Assembly (NCBI GenBank): GCA_965603015.1
Contig: CBFDBJ010000003.1
Location: 8,013 to 72,012, forward strand
Length of the DNA: 64,000 nt
Direction of reading: 5' to 3'
Source of the DNA: an uncultured Alphaproteobacteria bacterium
Lineage (GTDB): Bacteria > Pseudomonadota > Alphaproteobacteria > M2410
The notes under the pieces were generated by a model. The model searched no databases. It had not been told where the DNA came from and saw only the letters and a program-made list of their open reading frames with translations. A program made the translations under genes and the position numbers. Below are positions 3,851 to 64,000 of this stretch, in pieces (the stretch's first letter is position 1; each line of letters opens with the position of its first letter).

Positions 3851-3931
3851 GTCATTGCCGGGCTTGACCCGGTAATCCAGTGGCACCGAATTCCGACGCT
3901 TCTGGATACCCGGATCAAGTCCGGGTATGAC
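3851..3931. repeat. REP-like palindromic element, subfamily A (copy 1)
   Basis: Left arm is gtcattgccgggcttgacccggtaatccag. A near reverse-complement right arm is ctggatacccggatcaagtccgggtatgac. Same architecture as the copies at 22736 and 25402. Confidence 0.8.
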
Positions 3932-4120
3932 ATGGCGTTTGTTGGTCGTTTTGGCGTAACACACTCAAAACAAAGAGGTATCGCACCAGTGGGCGAAAAC
4001 TTCGCTGACTGGTGTTGACCCCCGAACTCCAACGATCGGCGGCGGAAGAACAAGTGGTTCTACCGGAATTGATGCGGTTTCTAGGGGGTTAGAGGAAGAG
4101 AGTCAAGGGTTACGGCAGCC

Positions 4121-4540: not shown

Positions 4541-4660
4541 CTGTCGTCCCGGGCAAGCAACGCGCGACCCGGGATCTCGGGGCAAGGTCCCCGAACCGGT
4601 CGTGGATCCTGTTTGTAGCACAATCGTGCCCGGAGGTCCCGGCTCAAGGCCGGGACGACA
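4541..4660. repeat. REP-like palindromic element, subfamily B (copy 1)
   Basis: Reads tgtcgtcccgggcaagcaacgcgcgacccgggatctcggggcaag ... gcccggaggtcccggctcaaggccgggacgaca. Composite nested palindrome. Confidence 0.8.
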
Positions 4661-4690: not shown

Positions 4691-5833
4691 CTACCCCAGC
4701 GCCCGCTCAATAAAGCCGGCCCACAACATGCCGCCGCGCAGGTCACCGACGAGGCCGCCGGCCATCTGGTTCATGACATAGGCCCCGCTCAAATGGGCGT
4801 CGGTGTCGATGACGACGAGAGAGCCACCCCAGCCACCCCAGAAACAGGTGTTTGGGTTGGGCGACAGGGGCGTGGCTTCGGAGTTCAATCCAAAGCCCAT
4901 GCCAAAGCGAACCGGCATCGCCAGCACCAGGTCCTCGCCCTCGGTCTGGACATCAAAAATCGTTTTGACCCCGGCCTCGGACAGATAGCGCTTGCCGCCT
5001 GCTTGCCCGCCATTGGCCAGGATGGTGTGAACCTCGGCGATGGACCGTGCATTGCCATGACCATTGGCGGCCGGGATTTCGGCGCGGCGCCAGGCCTCGT
5101 GCCCGGCCCAGGTGGCATCCACCGCCGGGCTGGCGAAGGTCCTGTGCGCGATACTGCCCTTCTCGCCGGTCGCCAGGGCCGCTGATGCTCCGGCAGCAGG
5201 AATAATCGTGATGACCTGCGCGTCTTTTTCAGGGGGGACGCCGATGAAAAAGTCGGCCCCCATGGGGCCGGCCACTTCTTCAGCAAAGAAGGTGCCCAGG
5301 GTCCTGCCGGTAACCCGGCGCACGATTTCGCCCTGCAACTGGCCCTGGGTCAGCGCGTGATAACCCGACTGACTGCCCGGCGTCCACCACGGGGCCTGTG
5401 CGGCCAACAGTGAGGCAATATAGTCGTGATCGCAAACCTGCGCCTCGGTGACCGGCTGGTCGAGGCCTGACAGGCCCGCCGAGTGCGACATGATATGGCG
5501 GACCTCGATGTCCTGTTTGCCGTTTTGGGCAAACTCCGGCCAATACTTTGAAACCTTTTCATGGAAGTCAATGTCGCCGCGGTCGGCCAGCATCAGCATG
5601 ACAAGGGCGGCCATGGTCTTGGTCGAGGAATAGACGTTGACGATGGTGCCTTCCTCCCAGGCCAGGGTTTTTTCCTTGTCCTTGTACCCGCCCCAGATAT
5701 CGATGACCGTTTCGCCTTCAACGGTGGCGCAGAAACTCGCGCCAACATCGGCGCCGCTCTCAAGATTTGATGCGAAGGCTTCTCTCACACTTGCGAACTT
5801 CTCGTCGCATTTTCCGTGTACATCAACTGACAT
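4691..5833 (-). CDS. serine hydrolase of the beta-lactamase/transpeptidase-like superfamily (EstB/class C-like)
   Basis: SxxK motif in YSSTKTMAALVMLML. Start reset to the internal ATG at 5833-5831, which follows GGAGAAG (MSVDVHGKCDEKF...). The longer track ORF runs into the REP-C element. Confidence 0.75.
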   Translation of the reverse strand: MSVDVHGKCDEKFASVREAFASNLESGADVGASFCATVEGETVIDIWGGYKDKEKTLAWEEGTIVNVYSSTKTMAALVMLMLADRGDIDFHEKVSKYWPEFAQNGKQDIEVRHIMSHSAGLSGLDQPVTEAQVCDHDYIASLLAAQAPWWTPGSQSGYHALTQGQLQGEIVRRVTGRTLGTFFAEEVAGPMGADFFIGVPPEKDAQVITIIPAAGASAALATGEKGSIAHRTFASPAVDATWAGHEAWRRAEIPAANGHGNARSIAEVHTILANGGQAGGKRYLSEAGVKTIFDVQTEGEDLVLAMPVRFGMGFGLNSEATPLSPNPNTCFWGGWGGSLVVIDTDAHLSGAYVMNQMAGGLVGDLRGGMLWAGFIERALG

Positions 5834-6010: not shown

Positions 6011-8065
6011 TTAATTGCGGCCAAGTTGACGCCATAGATAGGTGTATTGCAAGGCGTAATGCCTTGCGTGCTGGGCCATGTTAACGCCGCGGCCGTGGCC
6101 GCCTTCGGTGTTCTCGTAATAGAGCGGAGCGTGGCCCTGCTCTTTCATGCGGGCCATCATCTTGCGGGCGTGGCCGGGATGGACGCGGTCGTCTTTGGTG
6201 GACGTGTAAAAGAAGACGCGCGGGTAGGTCTTGCCCTCATGGACATTTTGATAGGGCGAATATTTTTCTATCCAGGCGCGCTCTTCGGGAATATCCGGGT
6301 CGCCATATTCTCCCATCCAGCTGGCTCCGGCGAGCAGCTTGTTATAGCGCAGCATATCGAGCAGCGGGACATCGCACAGCACCGCATTAAAAAGCTCCGG
6401 GTTCTGAGTAAAGGTTGCGCCGACGAGAAGCCCGCCGTTTGAGCCGCCGGAGATGCCAAGGTGGCGCGGCGCTGTGATCTTGCGGGCGATGAGATCGCGC
6501 GCCACGGCTGCGAAGTCATCAAACGCCTTCTGGCGATTTTCTTTCAGCGCCGCCTCATGCCACTTCGGGCCAAACTCGCCGCCGCCCCGGATATTGGCCT
6601 GCACATAGACACCGCCGGATTCCAGCCAGCCTTTGCCCGTTATCGGCATATAGGCGGGCGGTCTGGAGATTTGAAAGCCGCCATAGGCATCAAGAACTGT
6701 CGGGTTAAGGCCGTTCAGGGCCATGTCCTCGCGGGCGACAACAAAGTAGGGAATGAGTTCGCCGTCGGTGCTGGCGACTTCGAACTGCCAGACCTCAAGC
6801 CCGTCCGTGTCAAACCGCTGTGGCAGGGACATGACAGGCCGGCAGGTCGCTCCGCCCTTTGCCAGATGATACAGCGTCGGGGGCGTGAGGAAATTTTCAT
6901 AGGAGATAAAGGCGTCATCGGTGCCGGAACTGGTGGCAAGGGACCCAATCGCGCCGTTGCCGGGCATGTCGACGGCGGTTTCTGTCCAAGCCCCCTCCCG
7001 GGTGTCCGAGTTAAATTCAAAATGACTGACCTTGCCGATGACATTATCGAGGGTCACGAGATAGACGCCGGATTTGGCGATGCCGCCGAAATCGATGGCC
7101 GAGCGCGAACCCGGTTCATGGACGAGGGCAACACGGGAGATGGCGCCATCCGTCAGAAAATCATCCAGGCTAAAGGAAACGAGCGCGCCAGCGTTCCAGA
7201 TCTTGCCACCGACCTGCCAGTCTTCGCGTAAAAGCACAATCGCTTGTTGCCCGTGGAATCCGTAGAAGTCAAATTTGGCGGGAAGTGGAACCGGGACGGT
7301 CTGCCCATCGACATGAAAGCTGAGTTCATAGGTAAAGAATGTCACCCACCGATTGAGCACGCCGACAAATTTCGTGCCAACAAGGTGGCTTGACGGGAAC
7401 ATGCCGGTGTCGTCGACACTGCCTTCAACAAGGATTTGCGCATCGGCGATATCAGTGCCGCGCTGCCACAATTTTGCAAACCGTCCGTAGCCGGATGTTG
7501 TCAGGCTACCCTCGCCAAAATCGGTGCGGACAAGAAGCGTATCGGGGCCCATCCAGGCGACAACAGATTTTGCCTCGGGCAGGTAGAAACCACCGTCAAC
7601 AAACTGGCGTGACATAACATCAAACTCGCGCACGACCGAGGCGTCCTTGCCGCCGCGCGAGAGCCGAATGAGGGCGCGGGTGTGATCGGGGGCGCGCGAT
7701 GTTGCGTCTTGCCAGACCCAATTTTCATCCTCGGCTGCGGCCAGCGCATCAAGATCAAGCAGGGTCTCCCAGACCGGCTCACCTGCGGCGTAGGTTTTGA
7801 GCGGCGCGCGGCGCCAGATCCCGCGCACATGGGCAGCATCCTGCCAGAAATTATAGACAAAGGCGCCGTCCCGCCCGGCCCGAGGGGTGCCATAGGGAAT
7901 GCGTGCCTCGTCGTTGAGGACCTCAAGAGCGGCGGCCTCGATGACCTCGTAGCGCGGGTCGGCGGAGAGCTCTTCAAGCGTCGCCTCACTCTCGGCGGCA
8001 GCCCATTTCAGGGCTTCGGCGCCCTCAACCTCTTCAAGCCAAAGCCAGGGATCTTCTGTCGACAT
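6011..8065 (-). CDS. prolyl oligopeptidase family serine peptidase (S9A)
   Basis: 684 aa. N-terminal beta-propeller region, then a C-terminal alpha/beta hydrolase with GISGGSNGGLLVG (GxSxGG) and the catalytic-region pattern ...DDRVHPGHARKM... Confidence 0.85.
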   Translation of the reverse strand: MSTEDPWLWLEEVEGAEALKWAAAESEATLEELSADPRYEVIEAAALEVLNDEARIPYGTPRAGRDGAFVYNFWQDAAHVRGIWRRAPLKTYAAGEPVWETLLDLDALAAAEDENWVWQDATSRAPDHTRALIRLSRGGKDASVVREFDVMSRQFVDGGFYLPEAKSVVAWMGPDTLLVRTDFGEGSLTTSGYGRFAKLWQRGTDIADAQILVEGSVDDTGMFPSSHLVGTKFVGVLNRWVTFFTYELSFHVDGQTVPVPLPAKFDFYGFHGQQAIVLLREDWQVGGKIWNAGALVSFSLDDFLTDGAISRVALVHEPGSRSAIDFGGIAKSGVYLVTLDNVIGKVSHFEFNSDTREGAWTETAVDMPGNGAIGSLATSSGTDDAFISYENFLTPPTLYHLAKGGATCRPVMSLPQRFDTDGLEVWQFEVASTDGELIPYFVVAREDMALNGLNPTVLDAYGGFQISRPPAYMPITGKGWLESGGVYVQANIRGGGEFGPKWHEAALKENRQKAFDDFAAVARDLIARKITAPRHLGISGGSNGGLLVGATFTQNPELFNAVLCDVPLLDMLRYNKLLAGASWMGEYGDPDIPEERAWIEKYSPYQNVHEGKTYPRVFFYTSTKDDRVHPGHARKMMARMKEQGHAPLYYENTEGGHGRGVNMAQHARHYALQYTYLWRQLGRN

Positions 8066-8072
8066 GGGGGGG

Positions 8073-8927
8073 CTACTTTCCTATTACGCGAGCGCGGTAG
8101 TTACGCACGGCATGGGCGACCGTCGAGGGATGCACCTCGAAGTGCGCCGCGATATCAACCTGGCGGTGACCGCCGTCAAGATGGGCGGCGGCCATGGCTT
8201 CGCCGCGGCCTGTCCAGGTCCGCTGATAGTGGTCAAGCGAGTGTTTGGGTTCACGCGGCGCACGGCGACCTGATGCAAGAGCCTCAAGGACTTTCGGATC
8301 CATATCCGGCTCCTGACGCAGCAGCTTGAGGCCGGGCGGTGTTTTGGCCAGCTCGCGCTCAAGCCCGGGGATATTGTCGATGCCATCGTTTACATATTTG
8401 CAAAACGCCGCACGGCCATCCGTATCCTGACTTTTGAAATCCGAAAGAATTATCTCGCGGCCGTGCCACGACGGCACCGCTGCGGCGCCCGGCAAGAAGG
8501 TGGCGTAGTTTGACCATTGCCAGTCTTCAGGCTTTTGGGTGAGGCCGGCCTTGACCGGGTTGAGCGCGATGTAGCGCAGCAACGCCATGAGGTAGCGCTC
8601 CTCCTCCACGAGGAAAGATTTGTAGCGGCCCTGAAAAAGATGCCCGACATTCTCGTGCCGCCAGTTGGCCGATTGCGAGAAGCGCGAATTGAGACGACGC
8701 ATGCCGCTGGCCAGATTGGCCTCCTTCGTGCGCAGCAGCAGATGATAGTGGTTCGGCATCAGGCAATATGACAGGACCGACCAGGACAGCTCGTCGGCGA
8801 TCTCGCCGAGCAGGGTCAGGAATTTGCGGTAGTCCGAGGCGTCGAGGAAGATCTCCTGTTTGCGATTGCCGCGGGCGATGATGTGGTGGGTCGCACCGGC
8901 GAAATCTGCACGTAAGGGACGGGGCAT
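8073..8927 (-). CDS. IS200/IS605-fold HuH (Y1) transposase-like protein, RAYT-like, with a C-terminal DnaA-domain-IV-like HTH
   Basis: COG1943-type signature HHIIARGNRKQEIF...YCLMPNHYHLLL...GHLFQGRYKSFLVEEERYLMALLRYIALNPVKAGL (HuH = HYH, catalytic Y region). C-terminal part ...MAAAHLDGGHRQVDIAAHFEVHPSTVAHAVRNYR resembles the DnaA C-terminal HTH. Start reset to the ATG at 8927, preceded by GGAGG. Confidence 0.7.
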   Translation of the reverse strand: MPRPLRADFAGATHHIIARGNRKQEIFLDASDYRKFLTLLGEIADELSWSVLSYCLMPNHYHLLLRTKEANLASGMRRLNSRFSQSANWRHENVGHLFQGRYKSFLVEEERYLMALLRYIALNPVKAGLTQKPEDWQWSNYATFLPGAAAVPSWHGREIILSDFKSQDTDGRAAFCKYVNDGIDNIPGLERELAKTPPGLKLLRQEPDMDPKVLEALASGRRAPREPKHSLDHYQRTWTGRGEAMAAAHLDGGHRQVDIAAHFEVHPSTVAHAVRNYRARVIGK

Positions 8928-8957
8928 GGGGAGGTCCTCCTTCGGGTTTTCCCCCTG

Positions 8958-9001
8958 ATACCATGATTTGGGGTCAGGCACCATATGGGAAATCATGGTA
9001 T
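8958..9001. promoter_or_regulatory. nested palindrome in the divergent RAYT-like/dapF intergenic region
   Basis: ataccatgattt - 20 nt - aaatcatggtat gives a 12-bp perfect stem. The loop carries the palindromic ccatatgg. Confidence 0.35.
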
Positions 9002-9037
9002 GGTGCGGAGGGGCGGCTGGCCCTATAAGCTTGGGCC

Positions 9038-9943
9038 ATGTCCAAATCCTCTTCACATAAGTCGCGGCCGTTCGTCAAAATGCACGGGCTGGGCAATGAT
9101 TTTATCATTATCGATGCCCGCACGGAGCCGTTTGCGCTGGGCGAAGCTGCTGTCCGCCTGCTCGCCGACCGCAAGCTCGGCGTCGGCTGTGATCAGCTCA
9201 TCGTGATGGAACCACGGCGCGGCCAGGGCGACACCTATATGCGGATCTGGAACCCCGATGGCGGCGAGGTCGAGGCCTGCGGCAATGCCACGCGCTGTCT
9301 CGGCCGGATCCTGATGGAGGAAAGCGGCAAGGCCGAAGCCGTCATCGAGACCGTCGCGGGGGATCTGAAGGCAACTTCGGGCGGACCCGGCATTGTCACC
9401 GTCGATATGGTCACCGTTGATATGGGTAGGCCAAAATTCGACTGGCAGGACATCCCCTTGCGCGAGAGCATGGACACGCGGCTGATCGACTATATGGCGG
9501 TGCCGGGGACGGCCTTCGGGCTGACCGGACCGAGCGCCGTCAATATCGGCAATCCGCACTGTGTGTTTTTTGTCGAGGATGTGCACGCGCATGACCTTCA
9601 GGCGCTGGGCCCCGGCATTGAAAATCACATGCTGTTCCCCGAGCGCACCAATGTGGGTTTTGCCGAAGTTCGAGGCGCGGGCAAAATTCGCCTGCGCGTC
9701 TGGGAACGCGGCACCGGAGAGACGCAGGCCTGCGGCACCGGGGCTTGCGCTGCAGCGGTGTGCGCCATGCGCCAGAGCCTGACCGACCGCACGGTTGATG
9801 TCGAGCTCGACGGCGGAACCTTGACCATTGAATGGGATGCGGCCACGGACCATATCTTCATGACCGGCCCCGCGACGCTTGCCTATCGCGGCGAGCTTGC
9901 ACCTGAACTTATTGACGAGCTGCTGAAATTAGCGACCGCATGA
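9038..9943 (+). CDS. dapF: diaminopimelate epimerase
   Basis: N-terminal MHGLGNDFIIID and NPHCVFFVED motifs. 301 aa. Confidence 0.9.
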   Translation: MSKSSSHKSRPFVKMHGLGNDFIIIDARTEPFALGEAAVRLLADRKLGVGCDQLIVMEPRRGQGDTYMRIWNPDGGEVEACGNATRCLGRILMEESGKAEAVIETVAGDLKATSGGPGIVTVDMVTVDMGRPKFDWQDIPLRESMDTRLIDYMAVPGTAFGLTGPSAVNIGNPHCVFFVEDVHAHDLQALGPGIENHMLFPERTNVGFAEVRGAGKIRLRVWERGTGETQACGTGACAAAVCAMRQSLTDRTVDVELDGGTLTIEWDAATDHIFMTGPATLAYRGELAPELIDELLKLATA

Positions 9944-11271: not shown

Positions 11272-12386
11272 GTGAAGAGCCGACAGAAAAGAAACGGTTT
11301 GGCTGGCTACGCGGCAAGGACAAGGCCGCAGCGGTCGAAACCACCGCGACAACCGAACCGGTTGAAGAGCCGGTTGCGGAGCGTGCCCCTCCCCTTGAGA
11401 CTTCTGACACGGCGGAGCCCGAGGCGCCGAAAAAGAAATCTTTCTTTCAGCGCCTGAAATCCGGCCTCGCCCGATCATCCAGCTCGCTGTCTGAAGGCAT
11501 CACCGGGATTTTCACCAAGGCAAAGCTCGATGCCAGTACACTCGAGGAGCTTGAAGATCTGCTGATCATGACCGACCTCGGCGTCGAGACGGTGACCGCG
11601 ATCACGGCGAAACTGGCAAAGGACCGGTTCGACAAGGAAATCTCCAGCGAAGAGATCAAACAGTTTGTCGCTGATGAAATCACAGCCATCCTTGATCCGC
11701 TGGCCAGGCCGTTTGAGGTCAATGCCTCCCACAAGCCTCACGTGGTCCTGATGGTCGGGGTCAACGGCACCGGCAAAACGACGACACTGGGCAAGATGGC
11801 GGCGCGCGAAATCGCTTCAGGGCATAAAGTGATGATCGCGGCCTGCGATACGTTCCGGGCCGCCGCCACCGAACAACTCAAGGTTTGGGGGGAGCGCTCC
11901 GGTGCGCCGGTGATTTCAGCCGCCCCCGGGGCCGACGCCGCCGGGCTTGCCTTTGACGCGCTGAAAAAGGCCAGGGATGAGAATGTTGACGTTCTGTTTA
12001 TCGATACGGCAGGACGTTTGCAGAACAAGACAGAACTGATGGCGGAACTTGAGAAGATCATCCGCGTGATCAAGAAGCAGGATGAAAGCGCGCCGCACTC
12101 GGTGCTTCTGGTGCTTGATGCCACAACCGGCCAGAACGCGCTCGGCCAGGTTGAAGTCTTCAAGGCGGTCACCGATGTCACCGGCCTTGTCATGACAAAG
12201 CTCGACGGGACGGCCCGCGGCGGCATTCTGGTGGCAGTTGCCGCCAAATATGGCCTGCCGCTGCATGCCATTGGCGTTGGCGAGGATATTGATGACTTCC
12301 AGCCGTTCGAGGCGGCGGCTTTTTCGGCTGCGCTGGTCGGGCTGGACACGGATCTTAACCAGGATGCAATTGACGCCGAGGCATAA
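11268..12386 (+). CDS. ftsY: signal recognition particle receptor FtsY
   Basis: Acidic N-terminal region. NG domain with GVNGTGKTTTLGKMA, DTAGR and TKLDGTARGG. Confidence 0.9.
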   Translation: MSEEPTEKKRFGWLRGKDKAAAVETTATTEPVEEPVAERAPPLETSDTAEPEAPKKKSFFQRLKSGLARSSSSLSEGITGIFTKAKLDASTLEELEDLLIMTDLGVETVTAITAKLAKDRFDKEISSEEIKQFVADEITAILDPLARPFEVNASHKPHVVLMVGVNGTGKTTTLGKMAAREIASGHKVMIAACDTFRAAATEQLKVWGERSGAPVISAAPGADAAGLAFDALKKARDENVDVLFIDTAGRLQNKTELMAELEKIIRVIKKQDESAPHSVLLVLDATTGQNALGQVEVFKAVTDVTGLVMTKLDGTARGGILVAVAAKYGLPLHAIGVGEDIDDFQPFEAAAFSAALVGLDTDLNQDAIDAEA

Positions 12387-13872: not shown

Positions 13873-14514
13873 ATGGCTGGTCCCAAATTTGATCTGTCTG
13901 ATTCACCTGGCCACCTGCTGCGCCGGGCTCAACAATATTCATTTGATCTCTTTTCGAAAGAGATCGGCAACAGCAGACTGACACCGCGCCAGTTCGCCGT
14001 TCTGCTCACGGTACAACAAAACGAAGGCCTCAGCCAAACGGATCTTGTCAAGCGCACCGGTATTGACCGCTCGACGCTGGCTGACATGATCTCCCGGCTG
14101 ATCAGCCGCAAGCTTCTCTCCCGCACCCGGACCAAGGCCGATGCGCGGGCCAATTCGGTCAAAATCACGGCCTCAGGTGCGAAAGAGCTCTCTTCGCATG
14201 CCGCCAAGGTCAAATCGGCTGAAGCCAAGATCATGGGCCCGCTTGCCGCTTCCAAGCGGAAAGACTTCATGGCCGCGCTGAAGGCTATTGCTGCCGCCGC
14301 TGACGCTCTTGAAGCTGCTGCTGCCAAACCTGCCAAGAAGGCCGCCAAGAAGAAAGCTGCGCCAAAGAAAAAGGCTGCAAAGAAGAAGGTTGCCAAGAAG
14401 AAAACAGCCAAAAAAGCTGCCAAGAAGAAGGCCGCTCCCAAAAAGGCTGCGAAAAAGAAGGCGGCACCAAAGAAAAAGGCTGCAAAGAAGAAAGCTGCCA
14501 AGAAGAAGAGATAG
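13873..14514 (+). CDS. MarR-family transcriptional regulator fused to a histone H1-like Lys/Ala-rich (AKKAA-repeat) C-terminal tail
   Basis: N-terminal 140 aa show the MarR winged-HTH pattern (LTPRQFAVLLTVQQNEGLSQTDLVKRTGIDRSTLADMISRLISRKLLSRTRTKADAR). The last ~65 aa are AKKAAKKKAAPKKKAAKKKVAKKK... repeats. Confidence 0.8.
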   Translation: MAGPKFDLSDSPGHLLRRAQQYSFDLFSKEIGNSRLTPRQFAVLLTVQQNEGLSQTDLVKRTGIDRSTLADMISRLISRKLLSRTRTKADARANSVKITASGAKELSSHAAKVKSAEAKIMGPLAASKRKDFMAALKAIAAAADALEAAAAKPAKKAAKKKAAPKKKAAKKKVAKKKTAKKAAKKKAAPKKAAKKKAAPKKKAAKKKAAKKKR

Positions 14515-22735: not shown

Positions 22736-22821
22736 GTCATCCCCGGGCTTGACCCGGGGATCCAGAGCTTCACCCTCCGAGCCAACCGCTTCTGGATTAC
22801 CGGGTCAAGCCCGGCAATGAC
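22736..22821. repeat. REP-like palindromic element, subfamily A (copy 2)
   Basis: gtcatccccgggcttgacccggggatccag ... ctggattaccgggtcaagcccggcaatgac. Confidence 0.8.
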
Positions 22822-22836
22822 AAAGGGAGAGAGTAT

Positions 22837-25401: not shown

Positions 25402-25473
25402 GTCATTACCGGACTTGATCCGGTAATCCAGAAGGCGACGCACTGGATACCCGGGTCAAGCCCGGGCATGACA
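25402..25473. repeat. REP-like palindromic element, subfamily A (copy 3)
   Basis: gtcattaccggacttgatccggtaatccag ... ctggatacccgggtcaagcccgggcatgac. Confidence 0.8.
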
Positions 25474-55072: not shown

Positions 55073-57049
55073 CTAGTTTCCGATGTGCTTGTCGAGAAAC
55101 GCTTCCAGCTCGGTGAGAGCACGTATCCGGTTTTTTTCAAATGACAGATTGTGATCACCACCTTCAAAGATGACAAGCTTGTACGGTTTGTTTTCCTTTT
55201 TCAGGCGTTTAGCCATGAGTTTCGACTGATCTACCGGAACAACCCGGTCGTTTTCGCCGTGCATTAGAAGAATTGGTATTGCTATTGCGTCGACGTTGTT
55301 TGCTGGCGAGGTGTCACGGAGACGACCACTGTCATCCCACCGATCACCAATTCGGGGATCATTGCCGTCGTTGAATTTGAACGCACCCCAATGGGCCAGA
55401 AGTTTCTTAACATCCGACACTCCGCCAAAGCTGGCCGCACACTGATAAAGATCGGATGTCTTGACGGCACCCATGAGCGCTGCATAACCGCCGTAAGAGC
55501 TGCCGACGATGCAAATGCGCTGCGGATCAGCAATACCCTGCGCAATCAAGGCAAGGGTCCCGTCGGTCAAATCATCCTGCATCGCAAGACCCCATTGATG
55601 ATGACCGGCCTCCTCGAATTCCTTGCCATATCCGGTTGACCCTCTGAAATTGGGCTGCAACACAGCATAGCCCCGACTCGCGAGAAACTGTGCCCGGTAA
55701 TTGAAGGCCATGGTATCGCGCGAGTTTGGCCCGCCGTGAGGCATGACGACTGTCGCGTAGGGGCCGGGCCCGACCGGTCTGGTCAGGTAGCCGGGGATAG
55801 CAAGGCCGTCGCGTGCCACAAATTCGAAAGGCTCAACGGGCATCAATTGCCGGCCCTTGAGCAGGGGGTACTTGCGAGCGATCTCGACAACACGGGCCTC
55901 ATTTTTCAAGTAAAGAAACCAGGTCCCTGGTTCATTACCATTGCTTGAGAGTACAGCCCATTTCTGGCCAGCGCTGTCCCTGCTGACCAATGTGGTCTCA
56001 TTTCCCGGAAGCAGTTTATTCACAGCTTCGGCTGCGCGCTTCCAGGCACTGTCAAAGTATGTGGACCGCGGGTAGTGATCCACATACCAGACCCCAACGG
56101 CGACACTGCCGGCTTCGTCAAGCCTGACGCCGCCAGCATCTAGCTTGTCGTTTGAAAATACCGTACGAATAACTTTCGAAGATGGCAGATCGAGCAGGTG
56201 AATCTCTTGCCGACCACCCGCCCCCTTGCTGCTGACGAACAATCTGTTTGGATCTTTGCTGAATGCAAGGGCTGAGTAGCCGCCCAAACCGTCTATGTCG
56301 TCATCCAGTATCTTGCGCCAACCCGACTTTTCCTTATCCTTCAGCTCGGTGATGAAATCGCGCTGATTTACTCGATACCTATACCTGATCCGCACATCCC
56401 CATCGGCATCTGCCTCGTACCCGCCGATTTTGCTATCCTTGCCGGAAACAACTCTCTTGAGGCCCCCGGTATAAACATCAAGCTTGTAAACCTGCAGTTC
56501 CCATCCATTGCCCTCCCGATCCAGTTCAATCAGAATGTTGTCCGGGTCGTTCGGAAGTATATGCAGAACTCTGTCCTGCAATTGTGCAACCCGACCACTG
56601 GTCAATTCAAACTTCGACTTCGTGGCACGCCTGGCCTTCGGTATCATCTGTTTGTTGCGCAGGTCGCTGTCCATGGCCACCATGCGGGTTTCAACTACTC
56701 CGGTACCCCCTCGATATGCGGGGATCTCCAGAACCGCAACCAGACGCGTGTCATTGACCCAGAAGATCCGACTGAGCTCTTCATCAAGCTTCTTTCTGCC
56801 CTCAAAGGTCAGGACCTTAACGTTTTCTCCCGGCGTTCCATACATGTCATAGACTGTCAGAACCTTGGCTCCCTTGTAGGTCTGGATTGCAGCGTAGTGC
56901 GTTCCGCCAGGGGAGAGTTTGACCGACTGAACCATAGGCAGCTGCCCAAAGGCCTCAACCGGCGGCGGCGTGGTGGCTGCAAGGGCCGAACTGCAGAACA
57001 ACGCCGTCACTATTGAAAATACCGCCGAATATCTGGACACGCCTGCCAC
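55073..57049 (-). CDS. S9 family serine peptidase (periplasmic beta-propeller plus alpha/beta-hydrolase)
   Basis: Signal peptide. Motifs GSSYGGYAAL (GxSxG) and PILLMHGENDRVVP. 658 aa. Confidence 0.85.
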   Translation of the reverse strand: MAGVSRYSAVFSIVTALFCSSALAATTPPPVEAFGQLPMVQSVKLSPGGTHYAAIQTYKGAKVLTVYDMYGTPGENVKVLTFEGRKKLDEELSRIFWVNDTRLVAVLEIPAYRGGTGVVETRMVAMDSDLRNKQMIPKARRATKSKFELTSGRVAQLQDRVLHILPNDPDNILIELDREGNGWELQVYKLDVYTGGLKRVVSGKDSKIGGYEADADGDVRIRYRYRVNQRDFITELKDKEKSGWRKILDDDIDGLGGYSALAFSKDPNRLFVSSKGAGGRQEIHLLDLPSSKVIRTVFSNDKLDAGGVRLDEAGSVAVGVWYVDHYPRSTYFDSAWKRAAEAVNKLLPGNETTLVSRDSAGQKWAVLSSNGNEPGTWFLYLKNEARVVEIARKYPLLKGRQLMPVEPFEFVARDGLAIPGYLTRPVGPGPYATVVMPHGGPNSRDTMAFNYRAQFLASRGYAVLQPNFRGSTGYGKEFEEAGHHQWGLAMQDDLTDGTLALIAQGIADPQRICIVGSSYGGYAALMGAVKTSDLYQCAASFGGVSDVKKLLAHWGAFKFNDGNDPRIGDRWDDSGRLRDTSPANNVDAIAIPILLMHGENDRVVPVDQSKLMAKRLKKENKPYKLVIFEGGDHNLSFEKNRIRALTELEAFLDKHIGN

Positions 57050-57215
57050 CCCCGTTTGAAAACACCCTTGTTGGTCGTGGCGAGGTTAATGGGGTCACAA
57101 CCGGAGCGCAACTGTAGCCGCCACATACTTGCAAGACATTGAGTGGCGCGAAATCGGGGGGCTGCTCGGAAAATCGTCAGATTCAGGCTTTTCGCAGTGC
57201 AGCATTATCCGTTAG

Positions 57216-57248
57216 AGTGCCTGTGGAGTGCCTGTAGAGTGCTCGTGG
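57216..57248 (+). promoter_or_regulatory. three tandem 11-bp repeats AGTGCCTGTGG / AGTGCCTGTAG / AGTGCTCGTGG upstream of mutA
   Basis: Read directly, about 55 bp upstream of the mutA ATG. Candidate binding-site array. Confidence 0.35.
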
Positions 57249-57303
57249 CAAACTGGCCGGGGCGCGAGCCTCTGGCCCAAACAAAAACAACAAGAAGAAT
57301 GCA

Positions 57304-59238
57304 ATGAGCGAAACAGCCGATAGCACAGGGCAAGCCCTGAACCTTGACCTCAGGGACGACGGGGGTTTTCCGGTGATCGACGAGGCGGCGTGGCGCGGCC
57401 TTGTGGACCAGACCCTGAAGGGGGCGGATTTTGACAGGCGCCTGGTAAAGAAAACCGCCGATGGCATCGCCGTCAAGCCGCTTTACGGCGCTGCGGACAC
57501 CTGCGGCGAGACCGGCCTGCCCGGCCAGATGCCGTTTACGCGCGGCGGTGCGGCGGCGCACGCGCTGTCGCGGCCATGGGATATTACCCTGCGGGTCGAG
57601 CATCCTGACCTTGCCCAAGCCAATGCGATCATCCTCGAGGGTCTGGAAGGCGGCGTCAGCCATCTTGATCTGGTGATCGCCGATCACACCCAGGGCGGCC
57701 TGACGATCAGGGACAAGGCGGACATGGAGGCCCTGATGCAGGGGGTCGACCTGTCGCTGATATCTGTTTCGATTACCGGCGGCGAGGATGCCGGCATGGT
57801 GTCGCGCTTTGTGGCGATGATCGGCGGGCCAAAGGTTGTCAAAGGCGCCATTGGCCTTGATCCGCTCGGGGCTCTGGCGACCCGGGGCGGCCTTGCCAAA
57901 AGCCTTGAGGAAAGCCTTGGCTTTGCCGGCTCTGTGGCGCAGCAGACAGCCGGTATGACCGATACCTTCCGTACCATGAGCGTCGATATGCGCGGCTATG
58001 ATGCGGCGGGGGCCTCACCTGCCCTGTCGCTGGGGATTGCCATGGCAAGCGGCGTGACTTATTTGCGCGCGCTAGAGGCGGCCGGACTTTCGATTGATAC
58101 CGCTGCGAAGCAAATTTCTTTTACCCTGACCACAGATACCGATTTGTTTGTGTCCATCGCTAAATTGCGGGCGGCACGGACCTTGTGGGCGCGCATTGTT
58201 ACCGCTTCAGGCGGCACGCCAGACAGCGCAGCGATGGTCATCGGGGTTGAGACGGCAAGTCGGGTCATGGCGCAGCGCGATCCACATACCAATATCCTGC
58301 GCACGGCGATTGCCGGGTTTGGTGCAGCAATCGGCGGCGCCGACGCGCTTTCGATTTTGCCGTTCACTCACGCCCTCGGGTTGCCGAATGAGCTGGCCCG
58401 CCGGGTTGCACGCAACATCCATGTCCTGCTCGCCGAGGAGACAAACCTTGGCCGGGTGATCGATCCGGCGGGCGGTTCCTTTGCGCTTGAGCGCCTCACC
58501 GATGACGTGGCAGCGGCGGCATGGCGCCATTTTCAGGAGATTGAGGAGCAAGGCGGCATGGCCGCAGCCCTGACCTCCGGGTGGGTCCAGAGCCGCATCG
58601 CAGAGCTCGACGCCGCGCAGGCGCGCGACGTGGCGACACGCAAGATCACGCTGACCGGCGTCTCCGAGTTTCCGGACATTGCCGGGGCTGTGGTGGATCT
58701 GGAGCCGCGCCGCCGCCCTGACACTAACGGGGCAGACATTGCCGCGCCGGAGTTTGTCATTCAAGTTGAGGCGCTTGAAGCGAGGCGTCTGGCGGAACCC
58801 TTTGAAGCCTTGCGCGACCGGGCCGATGCGCACGCCAAATCCAGCGGTGCAGCGCCGTCGATCTTCCTTGCCAATATTGGCCGCCTTGCCGACTTCACGG
58901 CGCGGGCCGGGTTTGCTCAAAATATTTTTGAATCAGGCGGCATCCAGGCACGATCCGGAGAGGGGCATACCAGTGCTGCAGACGTCGTAAAAGCTTTCAA
59001 GGCCAGCGGCACGTCTGCCGCTTGCCTGTGTTCGAGCGATGCTCTTTACGGGGAGCATGCGACCAACTTTGGCAAGGCGCTGAAAGACGCCGGAGCGAAA
59101 CTGATCTTCCTGGCCGGCAATCCGGGCGAGGCGCGCGCGGCTTATGAGGCCGCCGGGGTTTCACACTTTATCCATGTCGGGACGAATGTCCTCGAAGCGC
59201 TCGCAGAAGCGCAAGACGCCTTAGGAGTTCCCGCATGA
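57304..59238 (+). CDS. mutA: methylmalonyl-CoA mutase small (beta) subunit
   Basis: 644 aa with MCM-beta architecture. Overlaps the mutB start by 4 bp. Confidence 0.85.
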
Positions 59239-61412
59239 GCCAGATCCCTGATTTCACACAAGTTGCACTTGAGGCAGATGCTTCCCCGGACGCGGCGAAG
59301 TGGGCGCAAGCTGCAGAGGCTATACGCGGCGAGGAGGCCCTCACATGGGAGACGCCGGAGGGCATTCCGGTCAAGGCGCTCTACACCGCCGAGGACGTGA
59401 AAGGCCTTGATTACCTCGACACATATCCCGGTTTTGCGCCGTTTATTCGCGGGCCCTACCCGACGATGTATGCCACGCGGCCATGGACGATCCGGCAATA
59501 TGCCGGGTTTTCGACCGCCGAGGACTCCAATGCGTTCTACCGGCGCAATCTGGCGGCGGGACAAAAAGGCCTGTCGGTGGCCTTCGATCTTGCGACCCAC
59601 CGCGGTTATGATTCCGATCATCCGCGCGTTGCCGGCGATGTCGGCATGGCGGGGGTTGCGATCGATTCCATCTACGACATGCGCACATTGTTTGCGGGCA
59701 TTCCGCTCGACGAGATGTCCGTCTCGATGACCATGAACGGCGCGGTGCTTCCCATACTCGCGCTTTATATTGTCGCGGCAGAAGAACAGGGCGTGCCCCC
59801 GGAAAAACTGTCCGGCACGATTCAGAACGATATTCTGAAAGAGTTCATGGTGCGCAATACCTATATTTATCCGCCGACGCCCTCGATGCGGATTATCTCG
59901 GACATCTTTGCCTATACCTCAAAGAACATGCCGAAATATAATTCGATCTCGATCTCCGGCTATCACATGCAGGAAGCCGGGGCGAGCGCGGACCTGGAAC
60001 TGGCCTATACGCTGGCGGATGGTCTGGAATATGTCCGCGCCGGGATCAAGACCGGCCTTGATGTCGATGCCTTTGCGCCGCGCCTGTCCTTCTTCTGGGC
60101 CATTGGCATGAACTTCTTCATGGAGATCGCCAAGATGCGCGCGGCGCGGCTGATCTGGGCGAAGATGATCCACGAGTTCAATCCGAAGAATGAGAAATCA
60201 CTGTCGCTGCGCACCCATTGCCAGACCTCCGGATGGTCGCTCACGGCGCAGGATGTCTACAATAATGTAACGCGCACAGCCATCGAGGCCATGGCGGCGA
60301 CGCAGGGCCACACCCAGTCGCTGCATACCAATGCGCTTGATGAAGCGCTCGCCCTGCCGACGGATTTCTCGGCGCGGATCGCACGCAACACGCAGATCCT
60401 GATCCAGCAGGAAACCGGCACCTGCCGCATTATCGACCCGTGGGCGGGCTCATACTATGTTGAGAAGCTGACCCACGATCTTGCCGCCCGCGCCCTCGTC
60501 CACATCAATGAAGTCGAAGAAATGGGCGGCATGGCCAAAGCCATCGAGGCCGGTATCCCGAAGATGCGGATCGAGGAAGCCGCGGCGAAAACCCAGGCCC
60601 GGATCGACACCGGGACCCAGACCGTGGTCGGCGTCAATAAATATCAGGTGAGCGACGATGCTGTGCTTGACGTGCGCAAGGTGGATAATTCCGCGGTGCG
60701 GGCGCAACAGATTGCCTCGCTCAAAAAACTGCGCGCCTCGCGCGACCAGCCGGCCTGCGATGCAGCGCTGGAGGCCCTGACAAGGGCAGCGGCGAGCGGC
60801 GACGGCAATCTGCTGGCGCTGGGCGTCGATGCGGCGCGCGCCATGGCCTCGGTCGGAGAGATTTCCGATGCGCTGGAAAAGGTCTATGGTCGTCACCGGT
60901 CCGATATCAAAACCATCAGCGGGGTCTATGCACAAGCCGTGAACAAGAATTCAAAAAATATCAAACGGGTCCGAGACCTCGTCGAAAGTTTCGAGACCCA
61001 TGAGGGTCGCCGCCCGCGCATTCTCGTTGCCAAGATGGGCCAGGACGGCCACGACCGCGGCCAGAAGGTGATCGCCACGGCGTTTGCCGATCTCGGCTTT
61101 GATGTCGATATCGGCCCCCTGTTCCAGACCCCCGAGGAAGTGGCGCAGCAGGCGGTTGAAAACGATGTCCACATGGTCGGTGCCTCGTCGCTCGCCGCCG
61201 GACACCTGACACTCATCCCGGCGCTGAAAAAGGCGCTGACCGCGCTCGGCCGTGACGACATCATGATCGTCGTCGGCGGCGTCATCCCGTCGCAGGATTT
61301 TGACGCGCTCTATGCAGCGGGCGCGAAGGCGATCTTCCCGCCGGGTACGGTGATTGCCGACGCGGCGGTGAAGCTGCTGGAAGATTTAAGCGCGGCGCTC
61401 GGGGTGGAGTGA
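59235..61412 (+). CDS. mutB: methylmalonyl-CoA mutase large (alpha) subunit
   Basis: 725 aa. Substrate-binding barrel. C-terminal B12-binding domain with DxHxxG motif [17 protein letters not shown], ending ...[15 protein letters not shown]. Confidence 0.95.
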
Positions 61413-61447
61413 GAATCCGAACCTGTTGACTTTCCGAAAGAAGATGC

Positions 61448-61954
61448 ATGCTCGATTTTATTACTGGCTTCGAAGACCCCGAAATTCAAAAAAGGGCTTT
61501 TCGAGTCTATCTGGTTTTTGTTGCAAGCTTGTTTGCGCTGGCAATCCTGTCGGTCGCACTGGGGTATGTATTCAGCTCAGAGTTTCGGAGCGAGGCTTCC
61601 TTAAGTAGCCTGCTCACGCAAGTTTTCATGATACCGCTCTTGGCGGGCTATACAGCCTGGCCGTTTGGCGTCTATCGACATTGCCCGGATCCAATTTCCA
61701 CAAAAATCGCAATCGGATTTCCGATGATGCTGGGAACTCTCTTCGGACCTCTCATGATTGTTGTGATGCTGACAATGCCGCCGGTGGAGCAAGAGGCGTC
61801 TCTAAGCCTGATTGAGCTTTTTCTTGTTCCTCTGTTCTTTAGTGCTGTTGGTCCCTTGATGATGGGATTCATGAGCTCTGCCGCTTTGTTTTCTTTGCGG
61901 GTGGTCTTGAAAGGAAAATTGAGAGTCGCCGCACCTAATCCGGACAATGGATGA
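61448..61954 (+). CDS. hypothetical 4-TM membrane protein (cassette 1)
   Basis: 168 aa. ATG after GAAAGAAG. AT-richer than mutB. No family recognised. Confidence 0.5.
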   Translation: MLDFITGFEDPEIQKRAFRVYLVFVASLFALAILSVALGYVFSSEFRSEASLSSLLTQVFMIPLLAGYTAWPFGVYRHCPDPISTKIAIGFPMMLGTLFGPLMIVVMLTMPPVEQEASLSLIELFLVPLFFSAVGPLMMGFMSSAALFSLRVVLKGKLRVAAPNPDNG

Positions 61955-62104
61955 TCGGCGGCGGCGACGGCGGCGGCATCCCGCCCCAAGACTTCGACGA
62001 GCTCTATGCCTCGGGCGCCAAAGCGATTTTCCCTCCGGGCACGGTGATTGCCGATGCGGCGGTGAAGCTGCTGGAAGATTTGAGTGCGGAGTTGGGAGTG
62101 GAGT
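61955..62104 (+). pseudogene. orphan diverged copy of the mutB 3-prime end (encodes [51 protein letters not shown])
   Basis: About 80 percent nucleotide identity to mutB 61283..61412, including synonymous differences. Ends in a TAA at the position homologous to the mutB stop. Confidence 0.75.
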
Positions 62105-62133
62105 AATACAGGTCAACCGGAAATGACTTTGAA

Positions 62134-63036
62134 ATGATACCTGACTGGATGAACTCGGTAGAAGGCTTTGTTGGCCTCTACCTCACAACACTGGCGTGCT
62201 GGTCGGTGCTTATTTGGAGGTTGGGTGGTGGCCAGAAACGTTTGATTCTGATTATCGGAATGACTCTTCCTGGCTTTGTTGTCTCATTGTTTGCCTTTGG
62301 CCCTCTTGAATCAGACTTTGTTGAAAAACACGCGTTCATTGTAATCAGCCTGATTACTATGGCGGTGTCAGGCCCGCCCTTTGCGCTTCATCTAGACTTT
62401 GCAAACTACCGCGAGCGACAAGACGAGAAGTGGGCGTTTAGTGTCGCTCTGCCGAACAGCATCTCGCTAATCCTTGGTTCGTTTGTCGCCTTGATCCCTG
62501 TAGTATCAATCTTCACAACGCTGATTGCAGTGCTAGCACTTGTTATCGTAGACAAGGCTCGTGATCCCCTCGTCCCGCCACAAAATCTACCAATTGAACT
62601 GGAGGTTCATTGGTTTCTATTTCCTCCTTTTCTTCATCTCCTGCTGCTGTTCTTTCCCTTCCTGTTCCTTTGGATGCATCTGGAAACCAGAGAGCCCCTC
62701 TGGCTAGCCCTCTTTGTCTTTTTATTAGTAGGGCCCGCTCTCCAGGTCTTTTTCTTCTTCAAACCAATGCGCGTGCATTTCTTGTCCGACAAGATTGTCC
62801 TCAAGCTCCTGGGCCGCACCTATTTTTACGATTGGTTGAAGATCGAGAAATTCGAAGTTCAGAGCATTGGCGTCGTCACAACGATAAAGGCGGCCTGTAA
62901 AGCTGGCACACCAATCAGACAAGTCCTTCGCTTTCCCTATTATGGCGCTTACCATCCACGTGACCTTGTGGAAACCCTCAATGCTCTGCTCGACGCAGGT
63001 GCTGGCTCACACTCCATAATTCAAGGCAGAACCTAG
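62134..63036 (+). CDS. hypothetical polytopic membrane protein with C-terminal soluble domain (cassette 2)
   Basis: 300 aa, about 6 TM. C-terminal ...HFLSDKIVLKLLGRTYFYDWLKIEKFEVQSIGVV... could be a bacterial PH-like domain. No confident family. Confidence 0.5.
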   Translation: MIPDWMNSVEGFVGLYLTTLACWSVLIWRLGGGQKRLILIIGMTLPGFVVSLFAFGPLESDFVEKHAFIVISLITMAVSGPPFALHLDFANYRERQDEKWAFSVALPNSISLILGSFVALIPVVSIFTTLIAVLALVIVDKARDPLVPPQNLPIELEVHWFLFPPFLHLLLLFFPFLFLWMHLETREPLWLALFVFLLVGPALQVFFFFKPMRVHFLSDKIVLKLLGRTYFYDWLKIEKFEVQSIGVVTTIKAACKAGTPIRQVLRFPYYGAYHPRDLVETLNALLDAGAGSHSIIQGRT

Positions 63037-63041
63037 GAGCG

Positions 63042-63788
63042 ATGCCCGACAACCACTACATACACTCCCGACTGGCGCAGGTCTATGACGTATCCGATCA
63101 GCCTTATCCTGCCGAGAAGACATTCTATCTATCGCTTGCGGGCGCGCCACCGCGCAAGGTCCTTGACCTTGGCTGCGGGGTCGGCAACCTGTGCCACGGG
63201 TTTCGCGAGAACGGTCACGAAGTGACCGGCGTTGACCCGGCCCCGGCGATGCTTGATGTTGCGGCTGCCAAGCCCGGCGGCGCGGCGATCAAGTGGATCA
63301 CCTGCGATGCGCAATCGTTTCGGTCAGATGAGCGCTTCGACCTCATCATCATGACCGGCCACGCCTTTCAGGTGCTTCTGAATGATGAGGATATTCAGGC
63401 AACACTCAAAACCATGCGCGATCATATTGCACAGGACGGCACGCTGGCCTTTGAGTCTCGTAATCCCGAAATCGACTGGGTCACCCGCTGGACCGCCAGA
63501 CCTGATACCGTGTGGGAGCTGAACCCGCGCGAAACCGTCTCGATTTCAACACACGTTCTGGACCGGTCCGGAGACACGATCTCTTTTGAGCATCATTACC
63601 GGTTCCCTGATGAGGAACTGGTGTCGTCCAGCACTCTGAAATTTACAACACTGGCTGACCTAACCAAATTTCTGGAAGATGCCGGATTTCAGGTTGAAGC
63701 CTGTTACGGCGACTGGGATCGCTCGCCCTTTGTACCCGAGACTTCCCTGGAAATGATCATCGTCGCGAAACCAGGGGATGAGGTCTGA
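63042..63788 (+). CDS. class I SAM-dependent methyltransferase (cassette 2)
   Basis: Motif I VLDLGCGVGNLCHGF. Motif II region FDLIIMTGHAFQVL. 248 aa. Confidence 0.75.
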   Translation: MPDNHYIHSRLAQVYDVSDQPYPAEKTFYLSLAGAPPRKVLDLGCGVGNLCHGFRENGHEVTGVDPAPAMLDVAAAKPGGAAIKWITCDAQSFRSDERFDLIIMTGHAFQVLLNDEDIQATLKTMRDHIAQDGTLAFESRNPEIDWVTRWTARPDTVWELNPRETVSISTHVLDRSGDTISFEHHYRFPDEELVSSSTLKFTTLADLTKFLEDAGFQVEACYGDWDRSPFVPETSLEMIIVAKPGDEV

Positions 63789-63815
63789 GGCGGAGCCAGA
63801 GGCTTGAGGCCACCT

Positions 63816-63880
63816 TCCCTCCGGGTACGGTGATTGCCGTCGCGGCGGTCAAGCTGCTGGAGGATTTGAGTGCGGAGGCC
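63816..63880 (+). other. third, truncated copy of the mutB 3-prime end segment
   Basis: ttccctccgggtacggtgattgccgtcgcggcggtcaagctgctggaggatttgagtgcggag encodes [21 protein letters not shown]. It breaks off at gcggag/gcctttaa. Confidence 0.7.
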
Positions 63881-63883
63881 TTT

Positions 63884-64000
63884 AATAGGCCTCAGCTACG
63901 GCTTCTTCTACCAACTGTTTCAACTGTTCATAACCAAAGCTGGGCATAGGCCGACCATTGACAAAAAACTCGGGAGTAGCGCGGACATTAAGCGTTTGTC
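63884..64000 (-). CDS. DsbA-like thioredoxin-fold protein, C-terminal end only (gene continues past the right edge)
   Basis: Reverse-complement reads ...QTLNVRATPEFFVNGRPMPSFGYEQLKQLVEEAVAEAY then stop, resembling a DsbA-family C-terminus. A gaggcc-tttaata-ggcctc hairpin lies at its stop. Confidence 0.4.

Follow-up and report, generated by a model that had tools for sequence, protein, structure and literature searches.

The 64,000-nt window analysed here comes from an uncultured alphaproteobacterium of GTDB lineage M2410 (assembly GCA_965603015.1, contig CBFDBJ010000003.1, positions 8,013 to 72,012) and carries near its right end an array of repeated ends of mutB, the gene for the 725-aa large subunit of methylmalonyl-CoA mutase (open reading frame [ORF] call at 59235–61412, plus strand). 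mutB lies downstream of mutA (57304–59238, plus strand, in the ORF listing) and is intact, and PF01642 and PF02310 are present in homologues of the window MutB. Repeat search and alignment place the live 3′ end of the gene (copy 1) at 61263–61412, an orphan end matching all of it (copy 2) at 61951–62106, and a truncated orphan end matching mutB 61329–61397 (copy 3) at 63809–63877, all on the plus strand. Two plus-strand cassettes occupy the spaces between them. Cassette 1 (61413–61950) consists of a 35-nt spacer and an ORF (61448–61954) for a 168-aa multi-pass membrane protein, and cassette 2 (62107–63808) consists of a 300-aa ORF (62134–63036) followed by a 248-aa S-adenosylmethionine (SAM) methyltransferase gene (63042–63788). 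The right flank of the array is the 3′ end of a minus-strand gene for a DsbA-like thioredoxin (63882–64000, stop codon at 63882–63884), which runs off the window; positions 63878–64000 are 98% identical to positions 6490–6612 of the related locus L081, where the gene is annotated as Thioredoxin_4/DSBA. No Rfam family was found in 56500–64000, and no tRNA or tmRNA within the window.

A first-pass annotation of the window had described three direct mutB-end copies bracketing two AT-rich cassettes, and this description is borne out. The repeat search pairs 61268–61410 with 61962–62104 (84% identity over 143 nt) and recovers a three-copy family at 61327–61395, 62021–62089 and 63807–63875 (88–90% identity over 69 nt). 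Cassette 1 has a GC content of 0.489; in cassette 2 the 300-aa ORF stands at 0.491 and the methyltransferase gene at 0.569, whereas mutB reaches 0.605 and the whole window 0.577. The other direct-repeat families of at least 35 nt in the window are a Lys/Ala-rich coding repeat, short palindromes resembling repetitive extragenic palindromes (REPs), and three two-copy pairs of about 74% identity that look like chance matches.

The boundaries of the units are tight. All four cassettes considered here, two in the window and two in L081, start directly after the stop codon of a mutB-type end, and each has an entire gene 0–250 nt from its right end and no partial genes. Cassette 1 fills the space between copies 1 and 2 to the nucleotide, the stop codon of its 168-aa gene sharing bases with the ATG of copy 2 (as ATGA; in the related locus L086 the overlap between this gene and the orphan end reads TAATG). 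In the alignment copy 2 has an in-frame 6-nt expansion and runs to a TAA stop as an orphan 51-aa ORF; the orphan end in L086 is also in frame and is called as a 72-aa ORF (L086 629–847). The left part of copy 2 (61951–61990) shows a (GGC)n-type expansion, GGCGGCGGCGACGGCGGCGGC, relative to both mutB and the L086 orphan, and the 6-nt gain is probably the result of slippage in an unconstrained copy. Copy 3 lacks the last 15 nt of the gene end and is joined to the flank 4 nt past the stop codon of the dsbA-like gene, the junction being GTGCGGAG followed by GCCTTTAATAGGCCTC, identically in L086.

The cargo also agrees with the initial description of hydrophobic multi-pass proteins accompanied by a SAM methyltransferase. 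The 168-aa and 300-aa proteins are hydrophobic and multi-pass and match no Pfam family, and the 248-aa protein is a methyltransferase (Methyltransf_25, E = 3e-18). The 168-aa protein, with four transmembrane segments, belongs to a rare family, since an exhaustive search of 1.84 billion proteins returned five matches, the best at 87% identity and the others at 27–36%; the 87% homologue occupies the same position in L086, and a 36% homologue is found in L087. The 300-aa protein, with about six transmembrane segments, has a 100%-identical copy as its sole match among 5.8 billion proteins, and no other genome represented in that search carries a relative. Neither membrane protein matches a plasmid, and a PHROGS search of the cassette proteins gave nothing. 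In PADLOC the 248-aa protein was matched only through its generic methyltransferase domain, and an Abi_alpha protein encoded in L081 showed a weak similarity to PDC-S47.

The three copies are diverged. Of 126 aligned coding positions, 20 distinguish copy 1 from copy 2, 15 by synonymous and five by non-synonymous changes (pN 0.053, pS 0.47, pN/pS about 0.11), and copy 2 is 13–14 differences per 126 positions away from the mutB ends of the genus, the same distance that separates those ends from one another. This is divergence under purifying selection, and because the differences are mainly synonymous, copies 1 and 2 must have diverged as parts of working mutB genes and not through duplication in place. 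That the many synonymous changes speak against a recent local duplication had already been proposed, and it is upheld by these counts and by the unrelated low-GC DNA between the copies. A tandem duplication of the mutB end, or an artefact of assembly, would account for repeats that are direct and close together, and yet the copies in the window and its relatives differ by 10–24%, mostly at synonymous sites, low-GC DNA of unrelated sequence separates them, assemblies made independently from further samples (L081: ERR12804456; L086: ERR13063750) repeat the architecture with other cargo, and the joint between copy 3 and dsbA is reproduced exactly in L086. The synonymous divergence and the arrays in L081 and L086 refute this explanation, and we give it practically no credence; with three independent assemblies in agreement, the concern raised at the outset over a misassembly is laid to rest.

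Occupied and empty sites in related genomes

Relatives were collected through a MutB homologue search and through the homologue of the 168-aa protein, giving five genomes of the clade (the window, L081, L084, L085 and L086), of which the syntenic L081 and L086 stood in for the region past window position 64000. The window, L081, L084 and L085 share 89.5–92% DNA identity over mutAB. Two of the five sites are empty, one holds a single cassette, and two hold two cassettes each with different cargo. L084 and L085 (GCA_048633335.1) have the empty sites, in which a single mutB end is followed by the native spacer, and the order is mutB, a spacer with a REP-like palindrome, a PEP-CTERM gene and FTHFS. 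The prediction that relatives would contain an empty site is therefore satisfied by both loci, but mutB abuts the REP-containing spacer and the PEP-CTERM gene there rather than dsbA as had been expected.

In the interval to the right of the array, the dsbA–dsbB pair is itself low in GC (0.47; compare L081 6494–7592 with L085 12563–13093), and L084 and L085 have the PEP-CTERM gene in its place. This replacement indicates that the mutB–FTHFS interval is flexible and has at least two independently variable segments.

In L081 two cassettes unrelated to those of the window lie between three mutB-end copies, in the order mutB, a minus-strand Abi_alpha gene, a degenerate mutB-end copy (about 5181–5246), a minus-strand gene for a 207-aa protein, and a last copy (6174–6229) that is complete to the stop codon and is followed by the native spacer, dsbA, dsbB and FTHFS. 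Positions 12152–12333 of L085 align without a break to L081 6199–6380 at 93% identity, and the last L081 copy is therefore the original gene end, displaced downstream, just as the displacement of an older end had been envisaged. The alternative that this copy was brought by an element was considered, since it is less like L085 than the neighbouring spacer is, and dropped, the excess of differences from L085 (7–9, with about 4.5 expected) not being significant.

The second L081 cassette (cassette B) is plasmid-related, judging from the sequence of its 207-aa product (P0123; L081 5303–5926, minus strand). This protein has HUH-like motifs (FYTINF, HAHWLV and VNYMMK), a weak Pfam match to REP_ORF2-G2P that falls below threshold (E = 1e-3), and ‘hypothetical’ homologues of 28–36% identity on alphaproteobacterial plasmids, including the small Sinorhizobium (S. 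meliloti) plasmid pRm1132f; a word-based search of 5.8 billion proteins found no relatives, and its AlphaFold model is unusable (pLDDT 34). The cargo of the four cassettes is typical of mobile DNA, with Abi_alpha, this HUH-motif plasmid-like protein and two proteins with few or no relatives.

L086 has one cassette fewer than the window, in the order mutB, cassette 1, one orphan copy, dsbA and dsbB, with cassette 2 absent. Its orphan has the left edge of window copy 2 (mutB 61263) and the dsbA junction of window copy 3, and what the window has beyond L086 is precisely cassette 2 with one repeat. Of 69 sites compared, eight distinguish copies 2 and 3; the L086 orphan has the copy-3 base at six of these, and it has the copy-2 base only at the two sites where copy 3 carries private non-synonymous changes. 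Copy 3, which had been read as a mosaic of the other two, is thus better understood as orthologous to the right-hand portion of the L086 orphan. The same base pattern places the exchange that separates the window from L086 within the first 2 nt of homology, a mapping to be read against a background identity of about 90% on the mutB side and about 96% on the dsbA side in genomes that are not close.

The array is recurrent and specific to this clade. A second mutB end within about 10 kb was found in none of the 80 distant mutB loci listed (at most 75% amino acid identity), nor in L082 and L083 (88–89% MutB identity) or L088, and among 272 plasmid or chromid records with a mutB end one has it in two places. 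The DNA downstream of mutB varies in every relative, even in those without repeats (L082 and L083). In L082 (12194–14369; 89% MutB identity) the gene next to mutB is on the minus strand and low in GC (330 aa, weak SIR2_2 match); a methyltransferase gene comes after it, and there are no mutB-end repeats. The L082 methyltransferase, 1.4 kb downstream of mutB, is 59% identical to that of cassette 2, and this arrangement may represent the donor type.

The mutB 3′ end is a real insertion hotspot, with recurrent gain and loss in units of one cassette plus one repeat. The empty sites of L084 and L085 and the other cargo of L081 substantiate the proposal that foreign cassettes have been inserted repeatedly at the mutB terminus. 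Serial insertion at the mutB end itself is supported as far as its recurrence goes, but cassette 2 was gained or lost at an orphan copy, unless L086 excised it. A literature search gave no paper linking methylmalonyl-CoA mutase with attB, in agreement with the earlier remark that the mutB terminus is not a described attachment (att) site.

The L086 comparison also bears on whether the arrays are inert leftovers, that is, the remains of large integrase-bearing islands, prophages or integrative and conjugative elements (ICEs) at the mutB 3′ end that decayed by deletion and are now immobile, which is the classical route to a cis-mobilizable element (CIME). Tandem attL–cargo–attR arrangements of gene 3′ ends are what decayed elements and accretion produce (PMC5704250), as do tandem islands at tRNA genes and ssrA (bioRxiv 10.1101/2020.12.28.424599; for ssrA, in the excerpt of PMC3146451), and a deletion has indeed happened at copy 3, where the last 15 nt and the native spacer are gone. 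The cassettes, however, are pristine, each one or two genes long and free of pseudogene remnants and of pieces of integrase genes, cassette 1 leaves not a nucleotide of its inter-copy space unused, and the single cassette and single repeat that distinguish the window from L086 point to unit gain or loss after the array had formed. We consider an origin as inert leftovers unlikely.

Candidate routes of cassette movement

We give about an even chance to the interpretation that the mutB 3′ end is the attachment site of a family of small non-autonomous cassettes moved by a recombinase acting in trans. A unit would combine one or two genes with a 55–150-nt imitation of the end of mutB, cut off precisely at the stop codon. 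The imitation would recombine with a resident copy, either the live gene end or an orphan in the array, probably from a circular intermediate whose strands are exchanged at the left end of the homologous stretch, and the unit would thereby be inserted. The imitation would become the new end of the upstream copy, so that mutB stays intact, and the resident end would be shifted downstream as an orphan; repeated rounds would build an array, and the reverse reaction would take out a cassette plus one repeat. Because the cassettes encode no recombinase, the site-specific enzyme would have to be supplied in trans, from elsewhere in the genome, from a visiting element or from a lost parent element. 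Two points favour such an enzyme: the units are whole and compact, and the sole mappable exchange falls where the homology starts on its left, with too little identity beside it for RecA. Compact whole cassettes would not be expected from random deletion or from illegitimate joints.

The window cassettes are oriented as mutAB, and no promoter or terminator is predicted between mutB and the cassettes. The shared orientation and the lack of predicted signals suggest that the cassettes are probably read through from the mutAB promoter, and they may be co-transcribed with mutAB.

A number of results count against a trans-acting recombinase with a dedicated site. No tyrosine or serine recombinase was found by Pfam in the cassette ORFs of the window and L081 or among the about 56 main ORFs of the window, in line with the initial observation that the window lacks an integrase, and none is present in the 10 kb downstream in L081 (which encode DsbA, DsbB, FTHFS, an aminotransferase, an alcohol dehydrogenase, GDT1 and LuxR/LuxI) or among the genes annotated in L081 and L086. 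A rough tblastn screen with XerD, lambda Int and Hin as queries gave a negative result as well. Viral, metagenome, phage and plasmid searches gave no autonomous element with a mutB-end attP; pattern scans with the repeat core matched no viral or metagenome contig, a looser pattern matched one distant single-copy mutB (L088), and no phage record carries a mutB end. The orphan copies do not share one left edge: window copy 2 and the L086 orphan start 150 nt before the gene end (mutB 61263), window copy 3 and L081 copy 2 about 84 nt before it (about 61329), and L081 copy 3 starts 55 nt before it (about 61358). A single recombinase with a single core site offers no simple explanation for these three edges. 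The conserved core common to the three window copies that had been put forward as the crossover site lacks support on the same grounds, as the mappable exchange, within the first 2 nt, lies outside it. There is no conserved inverted-repeat core or folded structure common to the copies: when folded as single-stranded DNA, five of them as the plus strand and the three from the window as the minus strand too, they show no shared hairpin (z-scores −2.2 to +1.4). The cassettes would hardly accommodate attP arm sites. L081 copy 2, at about 76%, has diverged far beyond what a simple serial model would lead one to expect. Finally, the comparison draws on five genomes that differ by about 10% in DNA, which blurs the crossover mapping. 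The left edge of about 84 nt shared by two orphans had been considered as a sign of site specificity and was downgraded, coincidence not being rare with four junctions in 150 nt.

Homology could instead have brought the cassettes in with no dedicated recombinase at all. DNA from related strains, delivered by gene transfer agents, transformation or vesicles, would carry a mutB end together with its downstream DNA. A circularised fragment could integrate through Campbell-type RecA recombination; alternatively, homology-facilitated illegitimate recombination would combine a homologous crossover in mutB with an illegitimate joint in the recipient mutB end. Orphan ends would stay behind, and cassettes would later be lost or swapped through recombination between repeats. 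That the arrays and their surroundings yielded no recombinase fits this route, and so does the variation in the left edges of the orphans. The route is also in line with the position of copy 2 within the genus-level diversity of mutB ends, diverged under purifying selection, the variable DNA downstream of mutB in every relative, and the L082 methyltransferase gene, which lies natively past mutB in the donor arrangement that the route needs; the 26-nt identical run common to copies 1 and 2 would suffice for a rare RecA exchange. On the other hand, all four right ends fall outside genes and truncate none, which is unlikely for random joints in gene-dense DNA, and the exchange in the first 2 nt of homology lacks the flanking identity for RecA. 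A single-copy site gains a cassette by homology alone only with a circular donor, and the repeats are short (55–150 nt) and 76–90% identical. We regard homology-driven entry, the main rival, as possible though doubtful. As to the site-specific insertion suggested in the first-pass annotation, the repeated arrival of cassettes at the mutB end stands, but the specificity is an indirect conclusion for which homology-driven routes compete.

Other features of the window

A Y1_Tnp (IS200-like) protein of 327 aa is encoded at 8073–9056 on the minus strand (Pfam, E = 1.8e-12) and is probably REP-associated. REP-like palindromes of the form TGTCAT(A/C)CCGGG… occur in the window at 3897–3932, 22787–22822 and 25438–25473, and at 4542–4586/24157–24201 and 5905–5968/23262–23325; the native spacer past mutB contains palindromes of the same type in L081, L084 and L085. 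Going by sequence, the Y1 gene and the palindromes together look like a REP-associated tyrosine transposase (REP/RAYT) system. Elsewhere in the window, a plus-strand gene at 13873–14514 encodes a MarR-family regulator with a Lys/Ala-rich C-terminal tail, which derives from 15-nt periodic repeats (14315–14507) and looks histone-H1-like.

Comparison with known systems

An integrative element with its own integrase would leave direct repeats of a gene 3′ end, an empty site and a displaced native end, all of which are seen at mutB, and would have a recombinase gene inside the element beside the att site, which these cassettes lack. Homology-facilitated illegitimate recombination is known in naturally transformable bacteria. 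It resembles the mutB situation in its one-sided homologous anchor, in needing no mobile-element enzyme and in its variable joints nearby, but it normally deletes recipient DNA at random joints and does not give whole-gene cassettes with ordered repeats. Xer-dependent modules such as integrative mobile elements exploiting Xer (IMEX) and pdif modules have a 28-bp dif-like XerC/XerD site at their borders, and on inspection by eye the GC-rich mutB core is presumably unlike a proteobacterial dif.

The closest parallel in architecture is with the CIMEs related to ICESt1 and ICESt3 that accrete at the 3′ end of fda in Streptococcus thermophilus (PMC5704250). Both are integrase-less tandem units flanked by direct repeats of the 3′ end of a protein gene, and in both an element-borne replacement end keeps the target gene intact. 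With att-like flanks and no integration or transfer genes, the mutB cassettes share one defining feature of a CIME, but the units here are 0.5–1.7 kb with one or two intact genes and no decay debris, their repeat left edges differ between cassettes, and no related autonomous ICE or integrative and mobilizable element (IME), and no integrase, was found. A CIME further derives by decay from an autonomous ICE or IME that shares its att sites and can mobilise it once accreted; the viral, metagenome, phage and plasmid searches gave no such parent, and the mutB genes listed by the contig scan were all distant ones.

Tandem insertion is also described for tycheposons at tRNA and tmRNA genes in Prochlorococcus (bioRxiv 10.1101/2020.12.28.424599) and, in the excerpted account of PMC3146451, for islands at ssrA in Dehalococcoides. 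As at mutB, successive insertions at one site push older elements inward, partial target copies separate the units, and the cargo is flexible and often defence-related. The mutB array differs in having a protein-gene target and longer, diverged repeats, and in lacking a tyrosine recombinase or replication module; it is thus no tycheposon, for which a tRNA or tmRNA target, a tyrosine recombinase and a replication module are characteristic.

Integron arrays are similar in a different respect. Both systems consist of compact, mostly promoterless genes, each with a recombination site of 55–150 nt, beside a fixed site; in both, one cassette and one site are gained or lost at a time and the cargo mostly lacks known relatives, and the window cassettes are co-oriented with the upstream operon. 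There is, however, no intI, attI or integron promoter (Pc) at mutB, where mutA–mutB lie upstream instead, and the L081 cassettes are in the opposite orientation. An identity of the repeats with attC sites was rejected, as the mutB-end copies are coding sequence with no conserved attC-like hairpin. A more far-reaching alternative, which strikes us as quite improbable, is an integron-like system without a neighbouring integrase, in which minimal circular cassettes would use the mutB-end imitation as their site, insert at a live or orphan end and be expressed by read-through from mutAB, and the catalyst would be new to cassette capture, for example a chromosomal or HUH-type enzyme such as those suggested by L081 cassette B or the Y1 gene at 8073–9056.

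The logic of tandem accretion is already known from these systems; the array departs from them in its mutB target, its tiny intact units, the lack of a related autonomous element and the several repeat edges. mutB, a protein-coding gene of central metabolism, is thus added to the chromosomal attachment sites, and an uncultured alphaproteobacterial clade has there an array of very small, intact, integrase-less cassettes in place of large islands. If the cassettes are moved in trans, they would provide a lightweight way of reshuffling genes singly or in pairs, Abi-type defence genes among them, with integron-like logic at a different site and presumably by another enzyme.

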